A stretch of DNA of 64,000 nt. It comes from an uncultured Gammaproteobacteria bacterium (GTDB lineage: Bacteria > Patescibacteriota > Patescibacteriia > UBA1558 > GWA2-36-10). Positions 2,514-55,773 of this stretch are shown here, piece after piece (position 1 is the first letter of the stretch; every line of letters begins with the position of its first letter). A program made the position numbers and the translations under genes. Under the pieces are notes generated by a model. That model was not told the origin of the DNA. It made no database searches and saw nothing but the letters and a program-made list of their open reading frames with translations. The DNA is taken from the NCBI GenBank assembly GCA_964515785.1, contig CAZEWH010000001.1:11730-75729 (forward strand), given 5' to 3'.

Positions 2514-3053
2514 ATGCCCCCAACAAAAAGAACAGCTGCTCGTCGTCCTGCTGCGCCAAAAGCTAGTGCACCAGAGGAATTGACAGAGTTTGAGAGTTTT
2601 GTTTCTCAACGCCCTAAAGATAATAAATCTAGTAAGGGTTGGATGATACTAACTTTACTTATCTTGATTATTATTTTGGTTGGTGCTTTGTGGTTTATCA
2701 AACAACCAGATAGTAATTTTGTTAAAGATGCAAACTTAAAAGCAATTGCTTTGGACAATGGACAAGTTTATTATGCTAAAGTAGCCAAAGAAGATGCTTT
2801 AAATATTTATCTTGATGATGTCTATTATATTCAAACTGAGCAACGAATTATTCCAGCTCAAGATGAAGAATCTGAAGATCAGGTGGTCAATGTTCCAGTT
2901 TTGGTCAAGAGAGGAGATGAGCTTCACAAGCCAACTGGTCTATTGCAGATCAATCGTGATCGAGTCGTAGGTATAGAGACTATTGGTGAAGATTCTGAGA
3001 TTTTGTTAGAAATTCAGAGATTGATAGAAGCTGGAGATACTGTTACTCAATAA
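2514..3053 (+). CDS. hypothetical membrane-anchored protein (basic Pro/Ala-rich N-terminus, single TM helix)
   Basis: 179 aa ORF; one hydrophobic helix; followed by terminator hairpin 3071-3101. Confidence 0.55.
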   Translation: MPPTKRTAARRPAAPKASAPEELTEFESFVSQRPKDNKSSKGWMILTLLILIIILVGALWFIKQPDSNFVKDANLKAIALDNGQVYYAKVAKEDALNIYLDDVYYIQTEQRIIPAQDEESEDQVVNVPVLVKRGDELHKPTGLLQINRDRVVGIETIGEDSEILLEIQRLIEAGDTVTQ

Positions 3054-3070
3054 AATAGCTTATATTTAAA

Positions 3071-3101
3071 GAAATACCCTTATTTTATAAGGGTATTTTT
3101 T
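3071..3101 (+). terminator. intrinsic terminator (ATACCCTTATTTTATAAGGGTAT + T-run)
   Basis: perfect inverted repeat followed by TTTTTT. Confidence 0.7.
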
Positions 3102-3107
3102 GTTCTA

Positions 3108-3136
3108 TTGACAAAATAGTTTATATATGCTATACT
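3108..3136 (+). promoter_or_regulatory. sigma70-type promoter TTGACA-N17-TATACT driving GC-rich two-gene cassette
   Basis: TTGACA at 3108-3113, 17-nt spacer, TATACT at 3131-3136, about 70 nt upstream of SD TAGGAGG. Confidence 0.6.
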
Positions 3137-3216
3137 TTTTCATTGTTTGAAAGTTCGTTGACTTCGAAATAAACTAAATCCACTAAATCTGTCACTCATG
3201 CTTTAGGAGGAACGTC

Positions 3217-3762
3217 GTGACCCGAAAAAAGAAATTGGGAGGGATTTTGGTTGCCATTGCTTTGGCGGCTATCTTGCTTCCCGGAGGATTTTTCCTCTGG
3301 CAAACTTGGTTTGTCTTTGATGGTGATGACATGGCTTGGGATGTTGGCCTGCTAGCTGATTCGCCTAATGACTTTGTTAGGATGGATAATCTGCTGCAGA
3401 ATTCAGTGTCTGCCATGGAAGAGCGTGATCTGACTACCGGTCCAGTCAGTCCTTACCTAGCCCATTTTGGTAGCATGGACGAATGCTATCAGACAGTGGT
3501 TGATCTGCAGGCTGAAGTCCATACTTGGGCTGAAGCTTATCCGGATTCTGCTGCAGCCAACAGCGAAGAAGTCCTGGCTCGTCAGGATGAAGTCGCAGCT
3601 CTGCGTACTCGTTTCAACAAGTTGCCTGATAGCCCGATCTACAATTACTACTTTTACAATCGCTATGCCTGGATGGGAGTGGTCATGCTAGGAGCTATGT
3701 ATTTCTTGATCCTGGGACTGATCTGGTACAACCGTCCGGAGGAGGCGAGTCATGTTTGTTAA
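3217..3762 (+). CDS. hypothetical membrane protein (N- and C-terminal TM helices), GC-rich, GTG start with strong SD
   Basis: 181 aa; SD TAGGAGG 6 nt upstream of GTG 3217; local GC about 50% vs about 34% background. Confidence 0.55.
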   Translation: MTRKKKLGGILVAIALAAILLPGGFFLWQTWFVFDGDDMAWDVGLLADSPNDFVRMDNLLQNSVSAMEERDLTTGPVSPYLAHFGSMDECYQTVVDLQAEVHTWAEAYPDSAAANSEEVLARQDEVAALRTRFNKLPDSPIYNYYFYNRYAWMGVVMLGAMYFLILGLIWYNRPEEASHVC

Positions 3763-4702
3763 GAACCCGACTGTCAAACGATCTGGCTGGCCTTATCGTT
3801 TCTGGAAGTGGACCTATCAGAATCGTTTCTGGAACAAGGACTTGCCCGAGCGTTTCTCGCTCTGTGCCTTTACCCAGCGCAGCATCTGGTTGGGATTTTT
3901 CCTACTGCCGCTGCTGTATGCCATCTACTTCTTGGTGGCTTGGTTTATTTACGACGTGCTTTATCGTCGGGTGGTCAGTCATATCACCAAGTACGCACCG
4001 CTGGCTGCTCTGCTGATTTGGCTGCCTCTGGTAGCTCTCAGTTTCTGGGGAGGTATGTCTGAAACAGCAATTGTCTTGGTCATTCTGACAGGCATTCTTT
4101 TGGGTATCCTAGTGGCGGCCGTTGTGATCATGGTGGCATGTTACTTACTGTGGGAGTTGATTAAAAAGGTCTTTACCTTCAACACTCAAGTGCATAGCTA
4201 CCACTATGTGCCTAGTAGTGAGTATCGTCGGCCGCTGGATCGCTACGACTTCAACCACGACACTGATCAAGGACTTGTCCATACCTTGTTCTGGATGCAG
4301 CCTCTCATCTGGCTCGGCATCTTTGCTCTGCTGGGAGGTTTTGGCGGAGGACACTATATCTCTAACCAGACCTTTGATCCGGTGTTGGCCAAGAAGTTCA
4401 TGCTTGGCTATGGCATTTTCTTCGTTGCTTACTACATCGGTGCCACCTTTTTCCTTTGGCGACACTGGAAGAAGGAAGTCAGGATCGAGCGGGGAGAAAT
4501 CGAGCGTCATCCGGAAAAACCGTCCAAGCCCAAGAAAGTGCGCAAGCACAAGGGCTGGTTTGGCCGCTGGTGGCTGGGTACTGTTTGGCCTGGCCGGTTT
4601 GGTAACCTCTTCCGTAACATCGGCGAGTTCCTCTGTCTGCTATGGGATGGCCTCAAGGCCCTCAAGCATCAGGTCTGCCCGATCATGGAAGTAGTGGAAT
4701 AG
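3752..4702 (+). CDS. hypothetical polytopic membrane protein with basic C-terminal tail, GC-rich, overlaps upstream gene by 11 nt, SD GAGGAGG
   Basis: 316 aa; several hydrophobic helices; RBS GAGGAGGCGAGTCATG inside the upstream ORF end. Confidence 0.55.
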   Translation: MFVKNPTVKRSGWPYRFWKWTYQNRFWNKDLPERFSLCAFTQRSIWLGFFLLPLLYAIYFLVAWFIYDVLYRRVVSHITKYAPLAALLIWLPLVALSFWGGMSETAIVLVILTGILLGILVAAVVIMVACYLLWELIKKVFTFNTQVHSYHYVPSSEYRRPLDRYDFNHDTDQGLVHTLFWMQPLIWLGIFALLGGFGGGHYISNQTFDPVLAKKFMLGYGIFFVAYYIGATFFLWRHWKKEVRIERGEIERHPEKPSKPKKVRKHKGWFGRWWLGTVWPGRFGNLFRNIGEFLCLLWDGLKALKHQVCPIMEVVE

Positions 4703-4710
4703 TATTTCAA

Positions 4711-4742
4711 CTGGCGTGTACACTATGCACGCCAGTTTTTTA
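4711..4742 (+). terminator. intrinsic terminator (CTGGCGTG..CACGCCAG + TTTTTT)
   Basis: 8-bp GC stem, 9-nt loop, T6. Confidence 0.75.
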
Positions 4743-4759
4743 TTTATCCACAGATTTGT

Positions 4760-4788
4760 TTGACAATATTTTTATTAGCTGTTAATAT
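4760..4788 (+). promoter_or_regulatory. consensus promoter TTGACA-N17-TAATAT of an orphan small transcription unit
   Basis: TTGACA 4760-4765, 17-nt spacer, TAATAT 4783-4788; no protein gene downstream before terminator. Confidence 0.5.
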
Positions 4789-4795
4789 ATACATA

Positions 4796-4936
4796 TCATC
4801 GTTCTTCAAAGATGTAAGCAATTCACCGCCAGAGACGTCTCTCTATCACCCGGATCTTGGTCTAGACAGACTCTCAATCAATGCTTACAACTTTTACCCA
4901 CAGGACTCTACTTCGGTAGAGTCCTTTCTTTTATTT
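4796..4936 (+). ncRNA. candidate ~135-nt small RNA ending in terminator hairpin GGACTCTACTTCGGTAGAGTCC + T-run
   Basis: promoter at 4760-4788; internal palindromes GAGACGTCTC and GTCTAGAC; terminator hairpin 4903-4924 is near-identical to the one ending cassette U3 at 18063-18084 (minus strand); no SD-preceded ORF. Confidence 0.35.
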
Positions 4937-5016
4937 AACCCCCTAAATCCCCCTTGTCAGGGGGACTTTTTTGTTTAAATAATTCCTCCCCTGACAAGGG
5001 GAGGTTAGGAGGGGTT
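4937..5016. repeat. 80-bp GC-rich palindromic intergenic element, copy 1 (AACCCCCTAAATCCCCCTTGTCAGGGGGAC ... TCCTCCCCTGACAAGGGGAGGTTAGGAGGGGTT)
   Basis: two internal hairpins (C5-TTGTCA-G5 and CCTCCCC-TGACAA-GGGGAGG) whose loops are reverse complements; outer arms AACCCCC/GGGGTT; second copy at 10999-11092. Confidence 0.8.
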
Positions 5017-5029
5017 AATCCTTACCATA

Positions 5030-5047
5030 AAGTAATTATAATTACTT
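5030..5047. promoter_or_regulatory. perfect 18-bp palindrome AAGTAATTATAATTACTT upstream of MerR-like gene (candidate operator)
   Basis: exact dyad 36 nt upstream of the 5083 start, overlapping the likely promoter region. Confidence 0.4.
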
Positions 5048-5082
5048 TACACTTTTTACTTTATGGTTTATAATATATATAC

Positions 5083-5322
5083 ATGCCAAAACAGGGGACA
5101 GACACAAAATTGATAAAGATTGGTCAGCTAGCCAAGCTGTTTTCTGTTTTACCTTCTACGATCAATTTTTATACTAGAGAAGGTTTACTTCCTGAAGATA
5201 ATCGCTCTCAAGGCGGTTATCGTCTTTATGATAAAAATAAAGCTATCAAAATATTAAATAAAATAAATTATTTACAAAATAAGAAAAGATTAACTATAGA
5301 AGAGATTAAAAACTTGCTATAG
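5083..5322 (+). CDS. small MerR-family HTH transcriptional regulator
   Basis: 79 aa; N-terminal MerR-type HTH (IGQLAKLFSVLPSTINFYTREGLL..GYRLYD). Confidence 0.6.
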   Translation: MPKQGTDTKLIKIGQLAKLFSVLPSTINFYTREGLLPEDNRSQGGYRLYDKNKAIKILNKINYLQNKKRLTIEEIKNLL

Positions 5323-8469: not shown

Positions 8470-9144
8470 ATGGCTTTTAAGACAGATGCATTTGTGTTGA
8501 GATCTCGTCCTTGGCACGGCGCTGATCGAATATATGATCTATTTACTCCTCACGAAGGAGTGATCAACGCTGTCTTAAAGTCAGCCGCTAAATCAAAGAG
8601 TAAATTGGCTGGACACCTTTTGCCATTTGCAAAAGTACGGGTAATGATTGGTCGTGGCCGCATGGATCATCTAGCAGGAGTGAGTGTGATCAAAGATTTT
8701 GCCCAGATACGAAATAATTTACGAAATTTATCTCTGGCTTCGTCATTGGCTGAGTTATTTCTAAACGAAGGTATCCAGAGTAATAAACAAGAAGAATTTA
8801 CCTTATTTGAAAATATTTTATCTTATCTTGACGATGCTCAAGTTTCGGATGAACAAAAATTATTGTTGGTAAGGATATTTTTGTGGAAATATCTTAGTTT
8901 GTCTGGCTGGCATCCAAAGTTTGATCAGGGTATAATGTATATATCGCCTGGCAATCGTGGACAAAATGTCAGTTCAGAACTATATGATTTTTTACAATTT
9001 ATAATCAAAGCTGATTGGACTGATTTTGTTGATTTGTCTATCAATCAGCGTTTAAATAAAGAATGGCTGAAAATTTCTCAAATTTATTATCAGGCAATTT
9101 ATGATCGGCCTTCACAAGCATTAAAATTATTGGCATATGGCTAA
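8470..9144 (+). CDS. recO: DNA repair protein RecO
   Basis: 224 aa; N-terminal OB-fold RecO signature (FVLRSRPWHGADRIYDLFT). Confidence 0.8.
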   Translation: MAFKTDAFVLRSRPWHGADRIYDLFTPHEGVINAVLKSAAKSKSKLAGHLLPFAKVRVMIGRGRMDHLAGVSVIKDFAQIRNNLRNLSLASSLAELFLNEGIQSNKQEEFTLFENILSYLDDAQVSDEQKLLLVRIFLWKYLSLSGWHPKFDQGIMYISPGNRGQNVSSELYDFLQFIIKADWTDFVDLSINQRLNKEWLKISQIYYQAIYDRPSQALKLLAYG

Positions 9145-10999
9145 AGTAGTAAAAAGAAATTTAGACGCAGCACGTCGAGCTCCAGTACGCAAAAAATCTT
9201 ATGAAGCCCCGGTAGTCCGTCGTCGTAAGCGTGAAGTACCAAAAGAATACCGTACTATGGAAAAAGCTTCCAAAAAAGGCGGTGGTTGTTTATTCTTTTT
9301 ATTTTTAATATTTGTAGTTGCTCTAGCTGGCCTCATCTATTGGAATAAAAACGGAACTACCAATACTGACGAGAGTATCACTGTCCGTGTAGATGGTCCC
9401 AAAAAAATAATTTCTGGTGATCAGGTAGTTTATGAAATAGAATATGAAAATTTAGATATAGTAACTCTAGAAAATATAAAGCTTTCTGTGCGTTGGCCAA
9501 ATGGATTTTATTTTGATGAAGCAAATATAGAACCTAGTGATCAAAATGCTACTACATGGTATCTTGATGATTTGCCAACCAAACAATCCAATTCACTAGA
9601 AATAAAAGGACAATTAGTTGGCCAAAAAGATGATGAGTTATCTGCTATCTTTACTCTAGAATATCAGCCAGTAAACTTTCATTCTGATTTTTCTGTCAAA
9701 GAAATTATAGATACAAAAATATCTGATAGCAAAATAGAGTTGAGTATAGATGCTGTAGACAAGACCTTGGTAGCCACTGAACAGACTATTAATATTAGTT
9801 TTAAAAATTTAACAAATAGAGATTTAGAAGATTTGTATCTAGATATTATTTATCCAGAAGATTTTGTTTTGTTAGATGAACTAAGTTCAAATGAAGAGGA
9901 GGAAGAAGATCTTGAAGATTTTGTAGACGAAGAAGTAGTAGAAGAAGAATCTATCTTTATTCCAGAGGATGATTATTGGAAATTTTCTTTGCCAGCAGCC
10001 ATTGAAGCTAATATGGTTTTGTATGGTGTTTTTCCGGTTGATAGCAAGAGTCAACAATCTTTGATTGTAGAAGTTGGTAATATGATTGATGGTACTTTCC
10101 GTCGTCTGTCACAAGTGACACAAGATATTCAAGTAGTAAATCCAAAATTTGATATAGATTTTTCTATCAATAACGAATACAACAATCCAACAGTCAATTG
10201 GGGTGACATTTTGCGTTATCAATTGGAAGTCACCAACCTAAGTGAGACAGAATTTAATGGTGTTGTTGTTACTGCCTTACTTGATAGTCAAGTATTAGAT
10301 TGGGAAGGTTTGGATACTGTTGGTATAGTACAAGAATCAAATATTATCTGGACCAGTGCTGAAGATGAAGAATTAGATATTTGGCCACCTGGTGATAGCC
10401 GAATTTTTACTTGGCAAATAGATATCATAGATCAGCCAGTCCCAGAACGCATGATTGAAAATATTATCAAAATAAATGTTGATGGCTTGGCAGATTGGGA
10501 ACAAGTGACTACTCCTTTGTTGGTCACTGTTGGTGAAGCAGTTGTCTTTAATAATGGTATTTATTGGGATTTGGGTGGACGACGTGTTGGCTCTGGTTTG
10601 CTGCCACCACAGATGGGAGAGAGTACTCAATATTTAGTGATATGGTCTATACCAGAAGCCACTGGTAATTTTGATTCAGCTACAGTTGTGACTACTTTTC
10701 CACCAGAGGTCAAATTTTTATCAGAAACAGATATACAAGAAGGTGAAATTATTTTTGATGATGATACTAGAAATTTGACTTGGCAGATAGATGATCTGGA
10801 CAATTTACTTTTACCAATGACTGCTTCATTTATTATTGAAGTCATCCCTACTGAAGACAATGTAGGTAGTGCTATGGTCTTGATGAATCCTACTACTTTG
10901 ACAGCTGAGGGTATAGAGCAAGTTATTATTAGATCCAAGATGCTCAAAACTTCTGATGTCTATGCTGATAGTAGCGAGCCGATTGGTATAGTTGAATAA
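9137..10999 (+). CDS. hypothetical large membrane-anchored protein (basic N-terminus, TM helix, acidic E-rich stretch, repeat-like beta domains)
   Basis: 620 aa; overlaps recO stop by 8 nt; TM CLFFLFLIFVVALAGLIYW; EEEEEDLEDFVDEEVVEEE. Confidence 0.6.
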   Translation: MAKVVKRNLDAARRAPVRKKSYEAPVVRRRKREVPKEYRTMEKASKKGGGCLFFLFLIFVVALAGLIYWNKNGTTNTDESITVRVDGPKKIISGDQVVYEIEYENLDIVTLENIKLSVRWPNGFYFDEANIEPSDQNATTWYLDDLPTKQSNSLEIKGQLVGQKDDELSAIFTLEYQPVNFHSDFSVKEIIDTKISDSKIELSIDAVDKTLVATEQTINISFKNLTNRDLEDLYLDIIYPEDFVLLDELSSNEEEEEDLEDFVDEEVVEEESIFIPEDDYWKFSLPAAIEANMVLYGVFPVDSKSQQSLIVEVGNMIDGTFRRLSQVTQDIQVVNPKFDIDFSINNEYNNPTVNWGDILRYQLEVTNLSETEFNGVVVTALLDSQVLDWEGLDTVGIVQESNIIWTSAEDEELDIWPPGDSRIFTWQIDIIDQPVPERMIENIIKINVDGLADWEQVTTPLLVTVGEAVVFNNGIYWDLGGRRVGSGLLPPQMGESTQYLVIWSIPEATGNFDSATVVTTFPPEVKFLSETDIQEGEIIFDDDTRNLTWQIDDLDNLLLPMTASFIIEVIPTEDNVGSAMVLMNPTTLTAEGIEQVIIRSKMLKTSDVYADSSEPIGIVE

Positions 11000-11092
11000 A
11001 CCCCCTAAATCCCCCTTGTCAGGGGGACTTGATGGATATAGAATATGTTAGTTAATTAGTTCCTCCCCTGACAAGGGGAGGTCAGGAGGGGT
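10999..11092. repeat. GC-rich palindromic intergenic element, copy 2 (same arms as 4937-5016 with longer central spacer)
   Basis: AACCCCCTAAATCCCCCTTGTCAGGGGGAC ... TCCTCCCCTGACAAGGGGAGGTCAGGAGGGGTT; arms nearly identical to copy 1. Confidence 0.8.
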
Positions 11093-11103
11093 TAAAAAGA
11101 ATA

Positions 11104-12863: not shown

Positions 12864-13553
12864 ATGAAAAGCAAAAAAAAGAAAATTTTAGGATTTTCTA
12901 TAATAGAATTAATGGTTATTATTGGTGCAGTTGGTGTTGTATTGGCTGTGACTGTTTCATATGTCAATCCACTAAAACGTGTCGGAGAATCTAATGATTC
13001 TGTTCGTTGGTCAGATGTTGAAGAAATAGCTCAAGCTCTAGAGCTCTATGCTATAGATAATAGTCAGATACCGGATGATTTTTCTACTCCTATTATAGCG
13101 GTAGACGAAAAACATGTAATCTGTGATTCAGCAGATTCTTTGACTTGTGATGGTGATACCAATGATTGTTTGGTAATAGACGATACAGATTTTTTGGCTT
13201 ATATTGATGACTTGCCAGTTGATCCAGATAAGACAGACACATCTGATACTGGTTATTATGTATTAAGAAAAGAAAATCAGGGTAAGATAGCTATTGGAGC
13301 TTGTGATCCTTATGGATCTACTGCTATTGAAGTTATAGCTCGAGCTGCTTTTTCAGTAGGTTGCGGCAATGGAGTCTTGGAAGAAAGTCTAGGTGAAGTT
13401 TGTGATAGTACTTTTACATCACTATGCAGTGATCCTAGTCAGGAGGGCTGGGGTTTTGGTGACTATGTAAGTAATACTGATTGTAAATCACCTAATGATG
13501 TCTGTAGTCCTGATTGTACTGAGTGTGACGTTGCTTGTATTGGAGGACCATAA
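12864..13553 (+). CDS. type IV pilin-like protein with prepilin N-terminal motif and Cys-rich C-terminal domain (paralogue 1)
   Basis: 229 aa; class-III signal GFSIIELMVII (G/F cleavage site, E at +5); about 14 Cys in C-terminal half. Confidence 0.75.
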   Translation: MKSKKKKILGFSIIELMVIIGAVGVVLAVTVSYVNPLKRVGESNDSVRWSDVEEIAQALELYAIDNSQIPDDFSTPIIAVDEKHVICDSADSLTCDGDTNDCLVIDDTDFLAYIDDLPVDPDKTDTSDTGYYVLRKENQGKIAIGACDPYGSTAIEVIARAAFSVGCGNGVLEESLGEVCDSTFTSLCSDPSQEGWGFGDYVSNTDCKSPNDVCSPDCTECDVACIGGP

Positions 13554-13566
13554 ATTTTGAATAAAT

Positions 13567-14253
13567 ATGTCTAATTTTAAAAATAAGAGATCTGGTTTTT
13601 CTATGATAGAGCTCATGGTCATTATTGTTGGTATTGGTATTTTGTTAGCCATAACTATTTCTTATATCAATCCCTTAAAAAGGATTGGAGAGTCCCGTGA
13701 TGCTCGTCGTTGGACTGATGTAGAATTATTAACTCAAGCTATAGAGCTTTATAGCTTGGACAATGATCAGATTCCTTCTGATTTTTCTGATGCAGTCATA
13801 GCAGTAGATGAAAAGTATGTGATCTGTGATTCAGCAGATTCTTTGATTTGTGATGGTGATACCAATGATTGTTTGGTAATAGATGATGCAGATTTTTTGG
13901 CTTATATTGATACTATGCCAATAGATCCTGGCAAGAGTAGTGTGGCTGATACTGGCTATTATATGACCAGAGAAGAAGATCAAGGTAAGATAGCTATTGG
14001 AGCTTGTGATTCTTATGGTAGTGATCTCATTAAAATTATTTCTAGAGCAGCTTTTTCAGTAGGTTGCGGCAATGGAGTTGTAGAAGAAAGTTTGGGTGAA
14101 GTTTGTGATAGCAATCAAACACAGGTTTGCGATAATCCTGCTGGCTATTATGGAGGTGACTATGTAGAAGATGGTTCAACCTGTAAAATAAATGATGGTT
14201 GGTGCAATAGCACTTGTACAGCTTGTAGCTCTTCTTGTATAGAAGAGGGTTAA
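13567..14253 (+). CDS. type IV pilin-like protein with Cys-rich C-terminal domain (paralogue 2)
   Basis: 228 aa; GFSMIELMVII; about 60% identical to upstream paralogue with divergence concentrated in last 60 residues. Confidence 0.75.
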   Translation: MSNFKNKRSGFSMIELMVIIVGIGILLAITISYINPLKRIGESRDARRWTDVELLTQAIELYSLDNDQIPSDFSDAVIAVDEKYVICDSADSLICDGDTNDCLVIDDADFLAYIDTMPIDPGKSSVADTGYYMTREEDQGKIAIGACDSYGSDLIKIISRAAFSVGCGNGVVEESLGEVCDSNQTQVCDNPAGYYGGDYVEDGSTCKINDGWCNSTCTACSSSCIEEG

Positions 14254-17473: not shown

Positions 17474-17689
17474 TCAAGTATTGACTTGCATAGAAAGCCA
17501 ACGGTCTAGCACGCTGCGCAAAAAGCGCCAATCACCACCGACTTTTTTGGCCGGGATCTTACCTTCTCTGGCTAGACGACAGACTGTCTTTGTGTGCATC
17601 TTGAGATATTCGGCTGCCTCGACAGCGTTAAGGACAGGGGGAGGAGTAGAGGTATGATGGCTTAGGTGCCCCTGATCATTATTGGTCAT
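17474..17689 (-). CDS. excisionase-family helix-turn-helix DNA-binding protein (GC-rich, strong SD)
   Basis: 71 aa; AVEAAEYLKMHTKTVCRLAREGKIPAKKVGGDWRF matches Xis/MerR-superfamily excisionase HTH; SD AAGGAGA 6 nt upstream of ATG; about 50% GC. Confidence 0.7.
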   Translation of the reverse strand: MTNNDQGHLSHHTSTPPPVLNAVEAAEYLKMHTKTVCRLAREGKIPAKKVGGDWRFLRSVLDRWLSMQVNT

Positions 17690-17744: not shown

Positions 17745-17774
17745 ATTAAAGCATTTAATATGTTTTTTTGTCAA
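17745..17774 (-). promoter_or_regulatory. promoter TTGACA-N18-TTTAAT for excisionase-family gene
   Basis: minus-strand TTGACA (plus 17769-17774), TTTAAT (plus 17745-17750). Confidence 0.5.
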
Positions 17775-17794
17775 CCTGCCTGCCGGTAAGCAGG

Positions 17795-17926
17795 AAATAA
17801 AAAGGGCCCCGTCGAGATGATCTCGACGGGGCTTCAGCACCCCTGCTGCACCAGCTTGCTTTACCTTCTTGCGGAGGCGTAAAGGCTGGTATTTTTATTT
17901 TAGCAGTTATTTTGATTTTTTGTCAA
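17795..17926 (-). ncRNA. mini-cassette U1: promoter TTGACA-N18-TAAAAT, ~95-nt GC-rich structured RNA, perfect terminator (GCCCCGTCGAGA-TCA-TCTCGACGGGGC + U-run)
   Basis: minus-strand -35 at plus 17921-17926, -10 at 17897-17902; 5' hairpin ACCAGCCUUUAC..GUAAAGCAAGCUGGU; terminator stem plus 17806-17832, A-run 17795-17803. Confidence 0.4.
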
Positions 17927-18042
17927 AAGAAAAAGGGGACCTCACTAGAGATCCCCCGAGAAACGAAGTAGTCGTCTTCATATTGCCAATCGGAGTTTCC
18001 GATTAGCATATTTATTGTATTATTTATATAAAAAGTAGTCAA
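17927..18042 (-). ncRNA. mini-cassette U2: promoter TTGACT-N17-TACAAT, ~80-nt structured RNA, terminator GGGGAUCUCUAGUGAGGUCCCC + U-run
   Basis: -35 at plus 18037-18042, -10 at 18014-18019; 5' hairpin AAUCGGA-AAC-UCCGAUU; terminator plus 17935-17956. Confidence 0.4.
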
Positions 18043-18055
18043 GAATTTAAGATAA

Positions 18056-18227
18056 AGAAAAAGGGCTCTACCGAAGTAGAGCCCCTGTCGAAAGCGGCCA
18101 TACAGGCCCCTCGTACCTGCGGTCTCGCAGAGTCATCCTGTTACCTCCTGCTGGAGGTGCGCCGTGTCGGTTCGCTGTGTACAGCGAACGCAATATTAAT
18201 TGTATAGATAATTTAGTGTTTTGTCAA
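18056..18227 (-). ncRNA. mini-cassette U3: promoter TTGACA-N17-TACAAT, ~135-nt structured RNA with four perfect hairpins, terminator GGGCUCUACUUCGGUAGAGCCC + U-run; contains SD-preceded 22-codon ORF
   Basis: -35 at plus 18222-18227, -10 at 18199-18204; hairpins GUUCGCUGU/ACAGCGAAC, CCUCC/GGAGG, CUGCG/CGCAG; AGGAGGU-N6-AUG (ATG at 18136, stop 18068) encodes MTLRDRRYEGPVWPLSTGALLR; SD lies inside the CCUCC/GGAGG hairpin. Confidence 0.4.
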
Positions 18228-18250
18228 TTCTGCCTTTGGATGGGACAAGC

Positions 18251-38996: not shown

Positions 38997-39081
38997 TTTA
39001 TCCTGAGCCTACCGAATGGATTGACAATAATATAAAAATATAGTTATATAGTTATGAAACGATCATTTTAAGGAGGTGTTA

Positions 39082-39372
39082 ATGCATCTAAAGTCTACTT
39101 GGGGAGCTTTATATTCATATATAAATACCCCAGATATAGAAGAACCCCCTTTGAGTCAATCTCAAAAACTGCAGAAGATCGCTGTTGCTGTAGGCGTCAC
39201 TTTGCGTACAGTCAAGAGATGGTTGAAAGAGAAAATTGAGCCCAATGCAAAAAATTTGGAAGCATTAGAAATCTTTCTGGAAGGAGAGGTAGTAGAATCA
39301 GAGGGAGAGACATATGGCTATAACCTCTCTGGTCAGTGGATAAGCCAAAATGCATATGGACAGCACATATGA
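39082..39372 (+). CDS. small HTH (XRE/Cro-like) DNA-binding protein with strong SD
   Basis: about 96 aa from ATG 39082; SD AAGGAGGTG 4 nt upstream; KLQKIAVAVGVTLRTVKRWLK helix-turn-helix; GC about 42%. Confidence 0.55.
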   Translation: MHLKSTWGALYSYINTPDIEEPPLSQSQKLQKIAVAVGVTLRTVKRWLKEKIEPNAKNLEALEIFLEGEVVESEGETYGYNLSGQWISQNAYGQHI

Positions 39373-39440: not shown

Positions 39441-41045
39441 ATGAAATTTAAAGATTGGATAATAAATGGTTTTCCTAATTCGATGTTATGGTTTATTGTA
39501 GTAACTTTTGTATTGTATGTTATGAATTTAAATATCATCGCTGTGTTATTATCTTTAACATTTTTTGTATTCTCAATTTTTTATTTTATATACAATTTGC
39601 CTTTTCAAAATAAGAAAAAATCTATAGTAATTTTTCTTAATTTATTATTTAGTGCTTTTTTTGCCTTTTTTGTTGTACTTTTTGAATTTGCAGATCCGGA
39701 GGGTATTATAGTACCAATATGGTTATTTGCAAGTCTATTTTATATATTAATAAACATTAATGTTTTAACTAAAAGAACATTAAAGGAAAGTAAAAATAAT
39801 CACGATTATGATAATGTTAAAAGTAATAATAATGAAATAGAACATCATAAACATAATATTAAAAATAACAACATTAAAGTAAAACATTATTTATTATTCA
39901 CTATATTAGATAATATTTTTGCTGTTATCTTATTTATATGGGCTATCTTTCTTATTATAGATGATTTAGGTAGTAGTGGCTTAGGGTCAGGATGGGTAGC
40001 TATAGGTTTAAGTTTTTGGGGTATAATAGCTTTTATTATTTGGTATATTTTAAATTTAAAATTGATTAAATTGATACATAATAAAAAATCTTTTATAAAA
40101 TTATCAACTATCATGATTTTTATTCAATTAGTTGTGTTTATTCCAGTCGTTTATTTTAGCTATGATGATATTGTTGATGATATGAGGAGTAAAAGAGATA
40201 ATGATATCTTAAGTAAGGCACAAAGTTATGAGGATTGTGAAAACATCCATTCTTATACTAGCAAAGAAAAATGTGCTAATAATATTTTTGATGACATAAA
40301 TGATATAGTGGGTTGTGTTCAATTAATAGCTTCTGTTAAGAATGTAAGTTCTTTTAAATGTGATGGTATAGAATATGATAGTAGTTGGTATTATAGGTTA
40401 GATGAAGTAGAAGAATATCATTTTAAAATAAAACAAGAACAACTTGAGGAAGAGATTGAATTAGCAAAGCAAGATATATTTTTGACTGTTAGAGATAACG
40501 AAGGCTTTATTGCTCGGACACTAGAATTGGGTTGTAATGAAAAGCAATATCATCGTGTTAAGGTTGATAATAAATATGAAAAGTATTACCGCCCTTGTAA
40601 TAGTGAGTGCCAATATGACATGCGTTTAAACGTGAATAAAGAGGTTACTGAATTTGAAAAAATGACTAATCTTGATAAAGAGGAAGCATGTTTAGCAAAA
40701 AAAGATTATTTTCAAAATAAAGTAGATAATTTTAATCAAGATAAATTATCTAAGCTTAGTAGTAATAAAACATTAGTAACTCTTAAGGAATTGTTGGATT
40801 ATTTTTATAGTTACCATCTTGATAGATGCATTTATTCATATGGACTCAATACTGTAGAGATCAACAACCAATTAAGAAACGGGATTTTAGATTTTAATTA
40901 TCTAACTGCCATTAGTAATAGATATTTTATTGATGGTATAACTATACATCCACCTAATAATACTGTGTCATCTTATGGGTGTGAGGGATATGGATTAGTG
41001 GATTATATAGAATATGAAGCATTAATTAATAAATATAAAGATTAA
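39441..41045 (+). CDS. hypothetical polytopic membrane protein with Cys-containing soluble C-terminal domain; extremely AT-rich
   Basis: 534 aa; about 8 TM helices in first 240 aa; coding GC about 25%, below genome background; own promoter and terminator. Confidence 0.6.
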   Translation: MKFKDWIINGFPNSMLWFIVVTFVLYVMNLNIIAVLLSLTFFVFSIFYFIYNLPFQNKKKSIVIFLNLLFSAFFAFFVVLFEFADPEGIIVPIWLFASLFYILININVLTKRTLKESKNNHDYDNVKSNNNEIEHHKHNIKNNNIKVKHYLLFTILDNIFAVILFIWAIFLIIDDLGSSGLGSGWVAIGLSFWGIIAFIIWYILNLKLIKLIHNKKSFIKLSTIMIFIQLVVFIPVVYFSYDDIVDDMRSKRDNDILSKAQSYEDCENIHSYTSKEKCANNIFDDINDIVGCVQLIASVKNVSSFKCDGIEYDSSWYYRLDEVEEYHFKIKQEQLEEEIELAKQDIFLTVRDNEGFIARTLELGCNEKQYHRVKVDNKYEKYYRPCNSECQYDMRLNVNKEVTEFEKMTNLDKEEACLAKKDYFQNKVDNFNQDKLSKLSSNKTLVTLKELLDYFYSYHLDRCIYSYGLNTVEINNQLRNGILDFNYLTAISNRYFIDGITIHPPNNTVSSYGCEGYGLVDYIEYEALINKYKD

Positions 41046-54654: not shown

Positions 54655-54936
54655 TTAGGCTGGAGGTTCGACGCGTCGGGCAGATTTGAGTATTAGACCC
54701 GTACCATCGCTTTCGCCACTCAAACAGCGTCCACAAGCTTCGATAGCTCGTATCTCTTTGAGCGTGCGAGCTTGTTTGATCTTGGGCGGCATTTTATCCA
54801 TCATAAGACGTTCGCATTGTGGGCAGTAAAAACCAAGACCGACGACAATTTCTTCGAGTTCAGCCACTGTAGTGGCTGTTTTAGCCTCGGTTTCGGTACG
54901 ACCTTCTCTGAGACGATTCCATCCGATTGTAGCCAT
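54655..54936 (-). CDS. small zinc-ribbon protein (CPQC..CGRC), GC-rich, strong SD
   Basis: about 93 aa from ATG 54936; SD AAGGAG + 6 nt; four Cys in two CxxC pairs; GC about 50%. Confidence 0.5.
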   Translation of the reverse strand: MATIGWNRLREGRTETEAKTATTVAELEEIVVGLGFYCPQCERLMMDKMPPKIKQARTLKEIRAIEACGRCLSGESDGTGLILKSARRVEPPA

Positions 54937-54972
54937 TTCTCTCTCCTTTTTTAGTGAACCATGATTCAAGGT

Positions 54973-55037
54973 AATATATATTATATTTATTATTTTGTCA
55001 ATCATGATTTGACAACTTAAAAAACTTGCTTTATACT
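54973..55037. promoter_or_regulatory. divergent promoter pair whose -35 boxes form the palindrome TTGTCAA-TCATGAT-TTGACAA (candidate operator)
   Basis: minus-strand TTGACA(plus 54996-55001)-N17-TATATT(54973-54978); plus-strand TTGACA(55009-55014)-N17-TATACT(55032-55037). Confidence 0.55.
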
Positions 55038-55270
55038 AATAAACAATAATTTAAATATGAAAAGTTTTAACTTTCAACTAAATACTAAGAAACACAGCGC
55101 TAAACATTATCGCTGGTATTTTGGTGTCTTAGTTGATGGTTAATATATAATATTTATTAGAATTATTATAATTTAATATAAATTTTTTAGATAATTAGCT
55201 ATCAACTAAAGTTGGTGGCTTTTTTTGTTGTATAAAAAAGTTCTTTCCCAACACCAAAAGGAGGTGAAAC

Positions 55271-55564
55271 ATGTCTATCATCAAGACCCCAATGTCTCGT
55301 GCTTTGCAAGAAGCTTGGCAAGAGCGTTTGTCTCAGAATCCTACTCGAGCTGAGCTGATTGATGTCATTCAGCAGATTGCTGTCTGGCGTGAAGAAGCAG
55401 CGACTGAGCTTTTTAAAGCTGAGTTGTCTCTGACTGATAAAGAGTTGGAGATTATCGTTGAGCATGTGCCTGAGTTTCGTCAGCGGGCAGCTCGCTTGCT
55501 TGCTCGAGTCAATGACTGGGCTGAGCTACAGGCTTCCAAGTGCCACGGTGGCTTTGTCATCTGA
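55271..55564 (+). CDS. hypothetical helical protein, GC-rich, SD AAAGGAGGTGA
   Basis: 97 aa; about 225-nt AT-rich leader from divergent promoter. Confidence 0.5.
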   Translation: MSIIKTPMSRALQEAWQERLSQNPTRAELIDVIQQIAVWREEAATELFKAELSLTDKELEIIVEHVPEFRQRAARLLARVNDWAELQASKCHGGFVI

Positions 55565-55578
55565 AAAGGAGGTGAATA

Positions 55579-55773
55579 ATGTCAGATATGCCAGAGCATG
55601 ATGACAGCTTTGTCCGCGAAGATACACTTGGTTGGACAGGTAATCATCATGATGAAATCGGCCTCAAAGACAGTGGCCAGTATCAAGCAATTACTGGCCA
55701 AGAAGATCACAGTTTCAGTGATGTTTCTTGGTCTGGTGATAGTGTGACTGGAGATGCTATCTTTCCTGGCTGA
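55579..55773 (+). CDS. hypothetical acidic small protein, GC-rich, SD AAAGGAGGTGA
   Basis: 64 aa; D/E/H-rich, low complexity. Confidence 0.4.
   Translation: MSDMPEHDDSFVREDTLGWTGNHHDEIGLKDSGQYQAITGQEDHSFSDVSWSGDSVTGDAIFPG

Follow-up and report, generated by a model that had tools for sequence, protein, structure and literature searches.

A compact cassette of two genes, here called A and B, occupies positions 3108-4743 of the DNA analysed in this work, a 64,000-nucleotide stretch (referred to as the window) of contig CAZEWH010000001.1 in assembly GCA_964515785.1. The host chromosome is that of a member of the Patescibacteria, of the Parcubacteria type, and its isoleucyl-tRNA synthetase (IleRS) shares 68-69% identity with the IleRS of six GTDB species representatives. 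The genomes of Patescibacteria are tiny, the accessory genes in them are mostly without known function, and how these bacteria exchange DNA is little understood. The cassette encodes two membrane proteins between a promoter and a terminator of its own (Table 1). Comparison with other genomes revealed that A and B constitute a small, previously undescribed cassette family, which moves between chromosomes as a whole, from promoter to terminator.

Composition and layout of the cassette

The coding part of the cassette (3217-4702) has a GC content of 50.5%, as opposed to a mean of 34.3% (sd 2.6%, maximum 40.7%) in the other 1.5-kb segments of the 64-kb stretch, which amounts to an excess of about six standard deviations. 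The GC content at third codon positions (GC3) is 0.49 in gene A and 0.64 in gene B, whereas the large majority of host genes fall between 0.14 and 0.34. The promoter and leader, by contrast, have a GC content of only 27.6%. Nearly all genes in the window lie on one strand, and the regions upstream of them are mostly AT-rich and devoid of a Shine-Dalgarno (SD) sequence. Both cassette genes, however, are preceded by a strong ribosome-binding site (RBS) at a spacing of 6 nt. The predicted pairing with the anti-SD sequence was -10.2 kcal/mol for gene A and -12.1 kcal/mol for gene B, while only 11 of the 69 open reading frames (ORFs) in the window reached -6 kcal/mol or below. The two genes overlap by 11 nt (3752-3762), and the position of the gene B RBS inside the end of gene A suggests translational coupling.

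Table 1. Features of the A/B cassette and of its left border in the window
Feature	Position	Strand	Description
p179 terminator	3069-3101	+	15-pair hairpin and T-run; left edge of the insertion site, outside the cassette
Cassette promoter	3108-3136	+	TTGACA-N17-TATACT with TG-extended -10; 11 of 12 consensus positions
5' leader	3143-3216	+	about 74 nt, AT-rich; ends in the gene A RBS, AGGAGG (3205-3210)
Gene A	3217-3762	+	181 aa, GTG start; ORF and homologues in other loci
Gene B RBS	3738-3745	+	GGAGGAGG; within the 3' end of gene A
Gene B	3752-4702	+	316 aa, ATG start; ORF and phmmer relatives
Intrinsic terminator	4709-4743	+	hairpin at 4709-4737 with 12-pair stem (6 GC) and 5-nt loop; T-run

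The promoter call represents a consensus match, and the transcription start is a predicted one. An earlier first-pass annotation, made from the sequence of the window, had described a GC content of about 50% against about 34% for the surroundings, a strong RBS for both genes with the spacing and overlap given above, and a clean terminator, all of which our analysis confirmed. It had also spoken of a perfect, host-type promoter. The promoter elements are present, albeit one position short of the consensus, but the host-type label did not hold, since promoter and leader are laid out in the same way in the cassettes of other genomes, as described below.

Further ORFs overlap the cassette at 3467, 3756, 3808 and 4206 and, on the minus strand, at 4145 and 3192. 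They are without counterparts in the homologous cassettes, in which the frames of A and B are conserved. Stop codons occur in the cassette at a frequency of 0.029 per codon, as against 0.067 elsewhere, and the extra ORFs arise because stop codons are scarce in GC-rich DNA; their earlier dismissal as spurious was correct. We also considered whether the GC-rich stretch could be a known structured RNA. This was ruled out, as Rfam gave no match at the gathering threshold across the whole window and only sub-threshold chance matches in a permissive scan of 3050-5100, and the 316-codon frame and its protein homology favour a coding function. Likewise, no tRNA genes were found in the window, which also contains no rRNA. 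A DnaA box (TTATCCACA, 4744-4752) directly 3' of the cassette terminator was dropped from consideration, being a single copy that was equalled in 52% of shuffled sequences.

The insertion site and the A/B family in other genomes

The cassette lies between folC, dprA and p179 on one side and a merR-family gene, ileS and recO on the other, with no phage genes within ±10 kb. The order DprA-p179-[spacer]-MerR-IleRS-RecO is kept in four of the six relatives compared by IleRS (L011, L013, L014 and L015), on which the comparison of the spacer rests; the sequences of the other two, L012 and L028, begin inside or beyond it. The p179 protein is 44-58% identical in the relatives, and its gene has a host-like GC3 of 0.23. 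Neither A nor B is encoded in any of the relatives L011-L015 and L028, in line with the initial view of the cassette as an autonomous inserted unit of foreign composition.

What occupies the spacer, which runs from the p179 terminator to the conserved promoter-operator of the MerR-family gene, differs among these genomes. In L014 it measures about 160 bp and is essentially empty, and in L015 it measures about 360 bp and contains GC-rich hairpins. The 400-bp spacer of L013 harbours, at 9090-9370, a GC-rich 64-aa ORF behind AAGGAGG and a very GC-rich terminator. The longest spacer, 3.7 kb in L011 (5880-9400), encodes two response regulators and a PAS histidine kinase at host GC, together with a GC-rich 101-aa ORF that has its own promoter, SD and terminator. 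In the window itself, the spacer holds three additions, namely the cassette, a unit at 4760-4932 and a repeat of about 90 nt at 4930-5018. As the content changes from genome to genome, the site is a hotspot that collects small autonomous units.

To find relatives of the cassette elsewhere, 1.84 billion cluster representatives were searched exhaustively with phmmer at E <= 1e-3. The search with B returned 15 proteins, about 12 of which count as full-length relatives (262-327 aa; 26-37% identity across the matched stretches); the relatives P0002-P0013 had E values from 1e-21 to 9e-6. The family is very rare, with about a dozen clusters in 1.8 billion. A word-indexed protein search gave self-matches only for A and B, and little was gained with the family alignment. 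At all seven loci with DNA upstream of B (L091, L092, L093, L094, L095, L098 and L100), a gene of 160-183 aa is located directly 5' of B, although in L092 only the 3' part of this A gene is covered. Using A181 as the query, tblastn matched L094 at E = 1e-11 and both L092 and L095 at E = 7e-6.

The layout around the two genes recurs as well. L091, L093, L095, L098 and L100 each have a TTGACA promoter 55-95 nt 5' of A, a leader, two SD sites and, after B, a hairpin terminator; the L094 sequence breaks off at the promoter. AAGGAGG or AGGAGG precedes B in four of six loci (L093, L094, L095 and L098), and weaker sites do so in L091 (GGGAGGGA) and L100 (AAAGGAGC). An alignment of seven leaders contained no conserved element beyond the promoter. 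The flanking genes differ in each genome and include rpsL, metK, a pyridoxal-phosphate enzyme of Cys/Met metabolism and a helicase; no other island gene besides A and B is common to the loci, and the membrane proteins encoded 3' of B in L100 and L106 have no detectable relationship to each other. With the same layout everywhere, varied flanks and nothing else in common, the mobile unit is exactly promoter-A-B-terminator. Given that the promoter-leader layout recurs in other genomes, the promoter is most simply regarded as part of the transferred unit and not as an addition by the host. Moreover, the promoter and leader are AT-rich in the cassettes of mid-GC genomes, too.

The composition of the cassette relative to its surroundings varies. 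In L093, L095 and L098, the cassette (46-51% GC) matches its flanks (45-48%). It exceeds them in the window (50% in flanks of 34%), in L094 (43-45% in 31%), in L100 (54-57% in about 30%, within a 3.9-kb island) and in L106 (54-57% in 26-30%). GC-rich copies in at least four AT-rich genomes indicate repeated, recent transfer, and by their composition the sources, whether donors or mobile elements, would have had a GC content of about 50%. The L091 copy, by contrast, has a host-like GC content (36-38% in flanks of 37%). A high GC content is thus not obligatory, which makes selection for it an unlikely explanation.

Several features in the vicinity of these cassettes were recorded alongside. Directly 3' of the cassette in the window, the unit at 4760-4932 on the plus strand combines a TTGACA-N17-TAATAT promoter with a terminator at 4902-4925, for a transcript of about 135 nt. 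Its RNA folds far better than shuffled sequences (z = -5.3), has no Rfam match and is missing from the spacer of the relatives; it is a candidate small RNA. The GC-rich, double-hairpin repeat of about 90 nt that follows is REP/MITE-like and occurs in two copies, 4930-5018 and 10992-11095, with 85-92% identity. An apparent AGGAGG upstream of tgt (11104) is explained by the second copy, which sits there. In the region 5030-5322, the MerR-family gene (79 aa) appears to be leaderless, with a TATAAT that ends 8 nt before the ATG. A palindrome in its promoter, CCATAAAGTAA ... TTACTTTATGG, spans the -35 element, reaches the -10 element and is conserved in L011, L013, L014 and L015; it probably serves as an autoregulatory operator. 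The 3.9-kb island of L100 (9400-13300; 51-57% GC) begins with the A/B cassette and contains three further genes that could not be annotated. A separate GC-rich, ClpP-like gene of L100 (550-1080) has a strong SD and matches phage head-maturation protease families at 1e-25, as a cellular ClpP would, too.

Proteins A and B and the relation of B to phrog_944

In the scanned sequence of protein A, two segments, residues 4-29 and 149-171, are hydrophobic and flank a stretch of about 120 residues, so that its first description as a bitopic protein had to be revised. The helical middle of about 120 residues probably lies outside the cell. The homologues of A have the same layout, with N- and C-terminal hydrophobic segments around about 110-120 helical residues, and have the motif LE-x-RGLT-x-G-x-V-x-P in common with it. 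An AlphaFold2 model computed from the single sequence is all-helical with a pLDDT of 67.7. Its only resemblances to other folds are to generic helical bundles and to the NarQ sensor-plus-transmembrane fragment, with TM-scores of 0.34-0.40 and E values of about 2-5, and none is significant.

Protein B begins with a basic, aromatic N-terminal module. About five hydrophobic helices come next, then a lysine-rich, disordered linker (259-280) and finally a C-terminal helix with KHQVCPIMEVVE at its end. In the B family, the N-terminal module reads M-F-x(3)-P-x-[IV]-x-R-S-x-W-H-Y-K-x-W-x-W-T ... S-I-C-x-Y and runs into the first hydrophobic helix, and the C-terminal end reads W-x-K-A-x-K-E-K-V-C-P-x-V-E-F-V-D. 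The 316-aa protein of the window has SGWPYRFWKWT ... SLCAF and KHQVCPIMEVVE at these places; Cys39, Cys309 and Pro310 are conserved, while the histidine of SWHY is replaced by proline. The earlier statement that neither protein has a recognisable motif is thus superseded by W-x-Y-[KR]-x-W ... [SN]-[IL]-C and V-C-P in B and by the motif of A given above.

In two short forms from the same phmmer search, P0014 (131 aa) and P0015 (146 aa), the N- and C-terminal modules enclose only two hydrophobic helices. These forms match the profile of phrog_944, a family annotated as "membrane protein", at 2.1e-18 and 2.3e-20, and the long forms match it at values from 1.9e-11 (P0003) to 1.7e-4. The match of B itself is weak, with E = 2.7e-4 and 21.7 bits, and no stretch passes on its own. 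A profile comparison by hhalign of the long B family with the phage short forms gave a probability of 97.9% and an E value of 5.5e-13 over B residues 7-52, which comprise the N-terminal module only. Judged by these sequence comparisons, the N-terminal module of B is homologous to phrog_944. In the phage forms, an N-terminal S-W-H-Y-[KR] ... [SN]-L-C-x-Y leads into the first transmembrane helix, as in B, and the C-terminal K-x-K-[VI]-C-P-x-[IV]-E-[FV] resembles the end of B. The phage forms, however, are 118-165 aa long with 2-4 helices and occur alone or as tandem paralogues without an A-type partner, whereas B is chromosomal, has 316 aa and about five helices, and includes a long outside loop and the lysine-rich linker. 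Members of phrog_944 come from T4-like phages of Acinetobacter, Aeromonas and Salmonella and from Pseudomonas Pakpunavirus. In phage Acj61, two tandem paralogues (p134 and p135) adjoin rI, and in PaP1 the member gp023 and the endolysin are six genes apart. Metagenomes contain forms of intermediate length (118-220 aa).

An AlphaFold2 model of B, calculated from a 12-sequence alignment, reached a pLDDT of 75.6 and a pTM of 0.45. It places helices at 37-77, 82-100, 102-152, 173-198, 210-252 and 283-305, the linker at 259-280 and strands at 7-9 and 311-315. From this model we infer that the two ends of B meet, which would bring the conserved Cys39 near Cys309. Residues 1-42 contain 8 Lys/Arg and residues 236-316 contain 18; as both ends are strongly basic, both may be cytoplasmic. 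Searches of the homologues in Pfam, NCBIfam and PADLOC found nothing significant, and at E <= 0.1 PADLOC-DB 2.0 matched neither A181 nor B316 nor any of six homologues.

Origin, possible role and wider setting of the cassette

Morons are defined by their own promoter, their own terminator and a GC content unlike that of their neighbours (PMC3594210). The cassette resembles them in being extra DNA relative to syntenic relatives, with its own sigma-70-type promoter, its own intrinsic terminator, an atypical GC content and membrane cargo. It is unlike them in residing in a cellular chromosome between housekeeping genes, with no phage or prophage around it, and in consisting of two coupled genes. 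The cassette thus works like a moron without being one in the strict sense. We consider it probable that 3108-4743 is a complete, horizontally acquired, moron-like transcription unit, a phage-linked operon for a membrane complex. In this reading, B is a long member, with roughly five helices, of a superfamily whose short forms (118-165 aa; phrog_944) are frequent membrane proteins of phages. The cassette also shares atypical GC and codon use, presence or absence in relatives and a variable spacer with differing cargo with genomic islets. Unlike islets, it is without tRNA gene, integrase and direct repeats, its whole promoter-to-terminator module is conserved across distant genomes, and strong SD sites, rare in the genome at large, precede its genes.

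In the mechanism we propose, the near-consensus promoter with its extended -10 element would drive strong, probably constitutive transcription. The 11-nt overlap and the SD site of B inside A would couple translation, such that A and B are made together in a fixed proportion. The two proteins may then assemble into a complex in the cytoplasmic membrane, in which A would expose its helical bundle outside the cell and B would form the membrane core. As the model of B suggests, its basic N- and C-terminal ends could pair as a cytoplasmic clasp with a conserved cysteine on each. The cassette might have an accessory role in the envelope that stems from phages, for example in superinfection exclusion or in defence against phage. 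HK97 gene 15 is a moron whose product, gp15, is an inner-membrane superinfection-exclusion protein. Because every moron feature except the phage location is found in the cassette, and because characterised morons with membrane cargo act in exclusion, phage exclusion or envelope protection ranks first among the conceivable functions. By analogy, we put it forward as a tentative proposal, with low confidence and far less than in the moron-like nature of the unit.

Several observations weigh against a phage-linked, moron-like unit. An integrase or recombinase, a tRNA gene and flanking direct repeats were not found with it. Full-length relatives of B were not found in three scans of IMG/VR viral contigs or by tblastn in GenBank phages, and a phage as the vehicle is therefore not established. 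B shares only about 30% identity with its closest relative, so that no donor could be pinpointed. Five hydrophobic segments in B, an odd number, conflict with two cytoplasmic ends. Finally, Pfam, NCBIfam, PADLOC, a PDB sequence search and Foldseek against PDB and BFVD returned nothing for A or B. As for the donor, the first-pass annotation had named a phage or the host of an epibiont. The link to phages stood, albeit as a remote one through phrog_944 and the N-terminal module of B; the epibiont host found no support, and the full-length relatives are all chromosomal, have the same promoter style and lie beside housekeeping genes.

Could the cassette have a different origin? The composition changes abruptly at both borders, as it would in an assembly chimera or a contaminated contig. 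However, at least 15 contigs encode precisely this B protein, and 10 contigs from ENA, JGI and Logan, derived from different samples and assemblers and up to 329 kb long, are 100% identical to 3000-5100 of the window with both junctions included. Identical junctions in 10 independently assembled contigs exclude a chimera, a concern raised at the outset; moreover, the AT-rich promoter and leader pass without a break into the flank and a proper terminator closes the unit, leaving this explanation with practically no probability. The same identity made the dN/dS ratio uninformative, as the contigs are all identical and the protein variants differ at one residue. An old, vertically inherited pair, whose high GC and SD sites were kept by selection for mRNA stability or expression and which was lost in the sampled relatives, would agree with the strong SD in most homologues, even in mid-GC genomes whose own genes are mostly without SD, and with the SD sites of other GC-rich ORFs in the window. 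It is nonetheless very improbable, given that all four syntenic relatives covering the spacer lack the cassette, one with a nearly empty site, that homologous cassettes adjoin unrelated genes in every genome, that a GC3 of 0.64-0.84 lies far off mutational equilibrium in hosts of about 26-35% genome GC, and that the L091 copy exists at host-like GC.

With regard to function, two alternatives follow the exclusion role in our ranking, ahead of ancient vertical inheritance. In the first of these, A would relay a surface signal to B in a sensor-effector module that serves the envelope or the attachment to a partner cell in episymbiosis, rather than acting against phages. Protein A has the layout of a membrane sensor without an output domain, a helical bundle outside the cell between two hydrophobic parts, its best fold resemblances include the NarQ sensor-plus-transmembrane fragment, A and B always co-occur and are translationally coupled, and in L095 a pilin-like gene lies just 5' of the cassette. 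These fold matches are non-significant and come from a single-sequence model of modest pLDDT, however, and the patchy distribution, the GC-rich copies in AT-rich hosts and the phage kinship of B fit mobile cargo better, so that we regard this role as rather unlikely. Somewhat less credit is due to a lysis or permeabilising module, either a holin-like protein with a regulator or a membrane toxin with an antidote, left by a prophage or used in abortive infection. Several transmembrane helices and a charged, basic C-terminal tail in B and its short phage relatives are general features of holins, and the Acj61 paralogues adjoin rI, a lysis-inhibition gene, and the PaP1 member is near an endolysin gene. 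On the other hand, neither an endolysin nor any other phage gene is found near any cassette locus, and only the basic tail of B recalls the holin of a holin-endolysin cassette. A near-consensus, probably constitutive promoter is ill-suited to a lethal product, PADLOC gave no match, and the conserved, paired N- and C-terminal modules are foreign to holins.

The strong SD sites of the cassette recur in other parts of the window. A strong SD precedes five of the seven high-GC ORFs and 3 of the 62 others (Fisher p = 1e-4), and in L100, an AT-rich genome that carries the cassette, the corresponding numbers are 4/8 and 0/16 (p = 0.007). Host core genes have a lower GC3 than the cassette and strong SD sites are tied to GC-rich ORFs, in accordance with the exceptional status first assigned to the cassette. 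Calling the genome otherwise SD-less was an overstatement, since the core genes rplK, rplA and atpE have SD-like sites, and because of these sites the ribosome can probably use SD pairing. Seven of 62 host genes, the MerR-family gene among them, look leaderless, with only 4-14 nt between the end of a -10 element and the start codon. The window contains at least four GC-rich regions with strong SD, rather than the three counted initially: the cassette, 17474-~18250, 54655-55773 and, less clearly, 39076-39372.

In the second of these regions, an ORF of 71 aa on the minus strand (17474-17689; 50% GC, AAGGAG site) matches HTH_17 at 6.5e-14 and the phage excisionase family phrog_66 at 1.9e-10, has no integrase nearby and may be a remnant of a mobile element. 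It is accompanied, in an otherwise ORF-free 800 bp, by a cluster of small GC-rich units, also on the minus strand (17765-18045 and 18050-18240). One of the units has a promoter (TTGACA..TACAAT), AGGAGG and a mini-ORF of 22 codons, and its terminator hairpin, CTCTACTTCGGTAGAG, is nearly identical to that of the unit at 4760-4932. The third region, located between rplA and a leucyl aminopeptidase gene, contains three small ORFs of 93, 97 and 64 aa (54655-54936 on the minus strand, 55271-55564 and 55579-55773 on the plus strand; 44-49% GC), the first of which is divergent. The two plus-strand ORFs have the RBS AAAGGAGGTGAA, the minus-strand one has AAGGAGAGAG and a TTGACA-type promoter, and none of the three matched Pfam or PHROGs. 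Elsewhere in the window, 12864-13553 and 13567-14253 are tandem paralogues of 229 and 228 aa with 76-78% DNA identity, and a 534-aa ORF at 39441-41045, with 25% GC and a strong GC skew, marks the low-GC extreme.

A broader and doubtful idea is that AT-rich, SD-poor Patescibacteria share a circulating pool of GC-rich, SD-dependent mini-cassettes, each running from promoter to terminator, which would be exchanged at terminator/promoter junctions without a recombinase of their own. If true, accessory genes would run an SD-dependent translation regime beside a core genome that is translated without SD. The A/B pair would then be the largest mini-cassette seen here, and the spacer between p179 and the MerR-family gene would be a natural landing pad.

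Taken by itself, this is horizontal acquisition of a fairly ordinary kind. The locus nevertheless provides a clean case, with clear bounds, of an entire transcription unit that moves between genomes of Patescibacteria. It also introduces a new two-protein membrane module, which B appears to tie to a widespread and unstudied family of phage membrane proteins. Strong SD sites go with GC-rich accessory genes, and not with core genes, both in the window and in L100; if general, this division would bear on how translation starts and how foreign genes are expressed in these bacteria.

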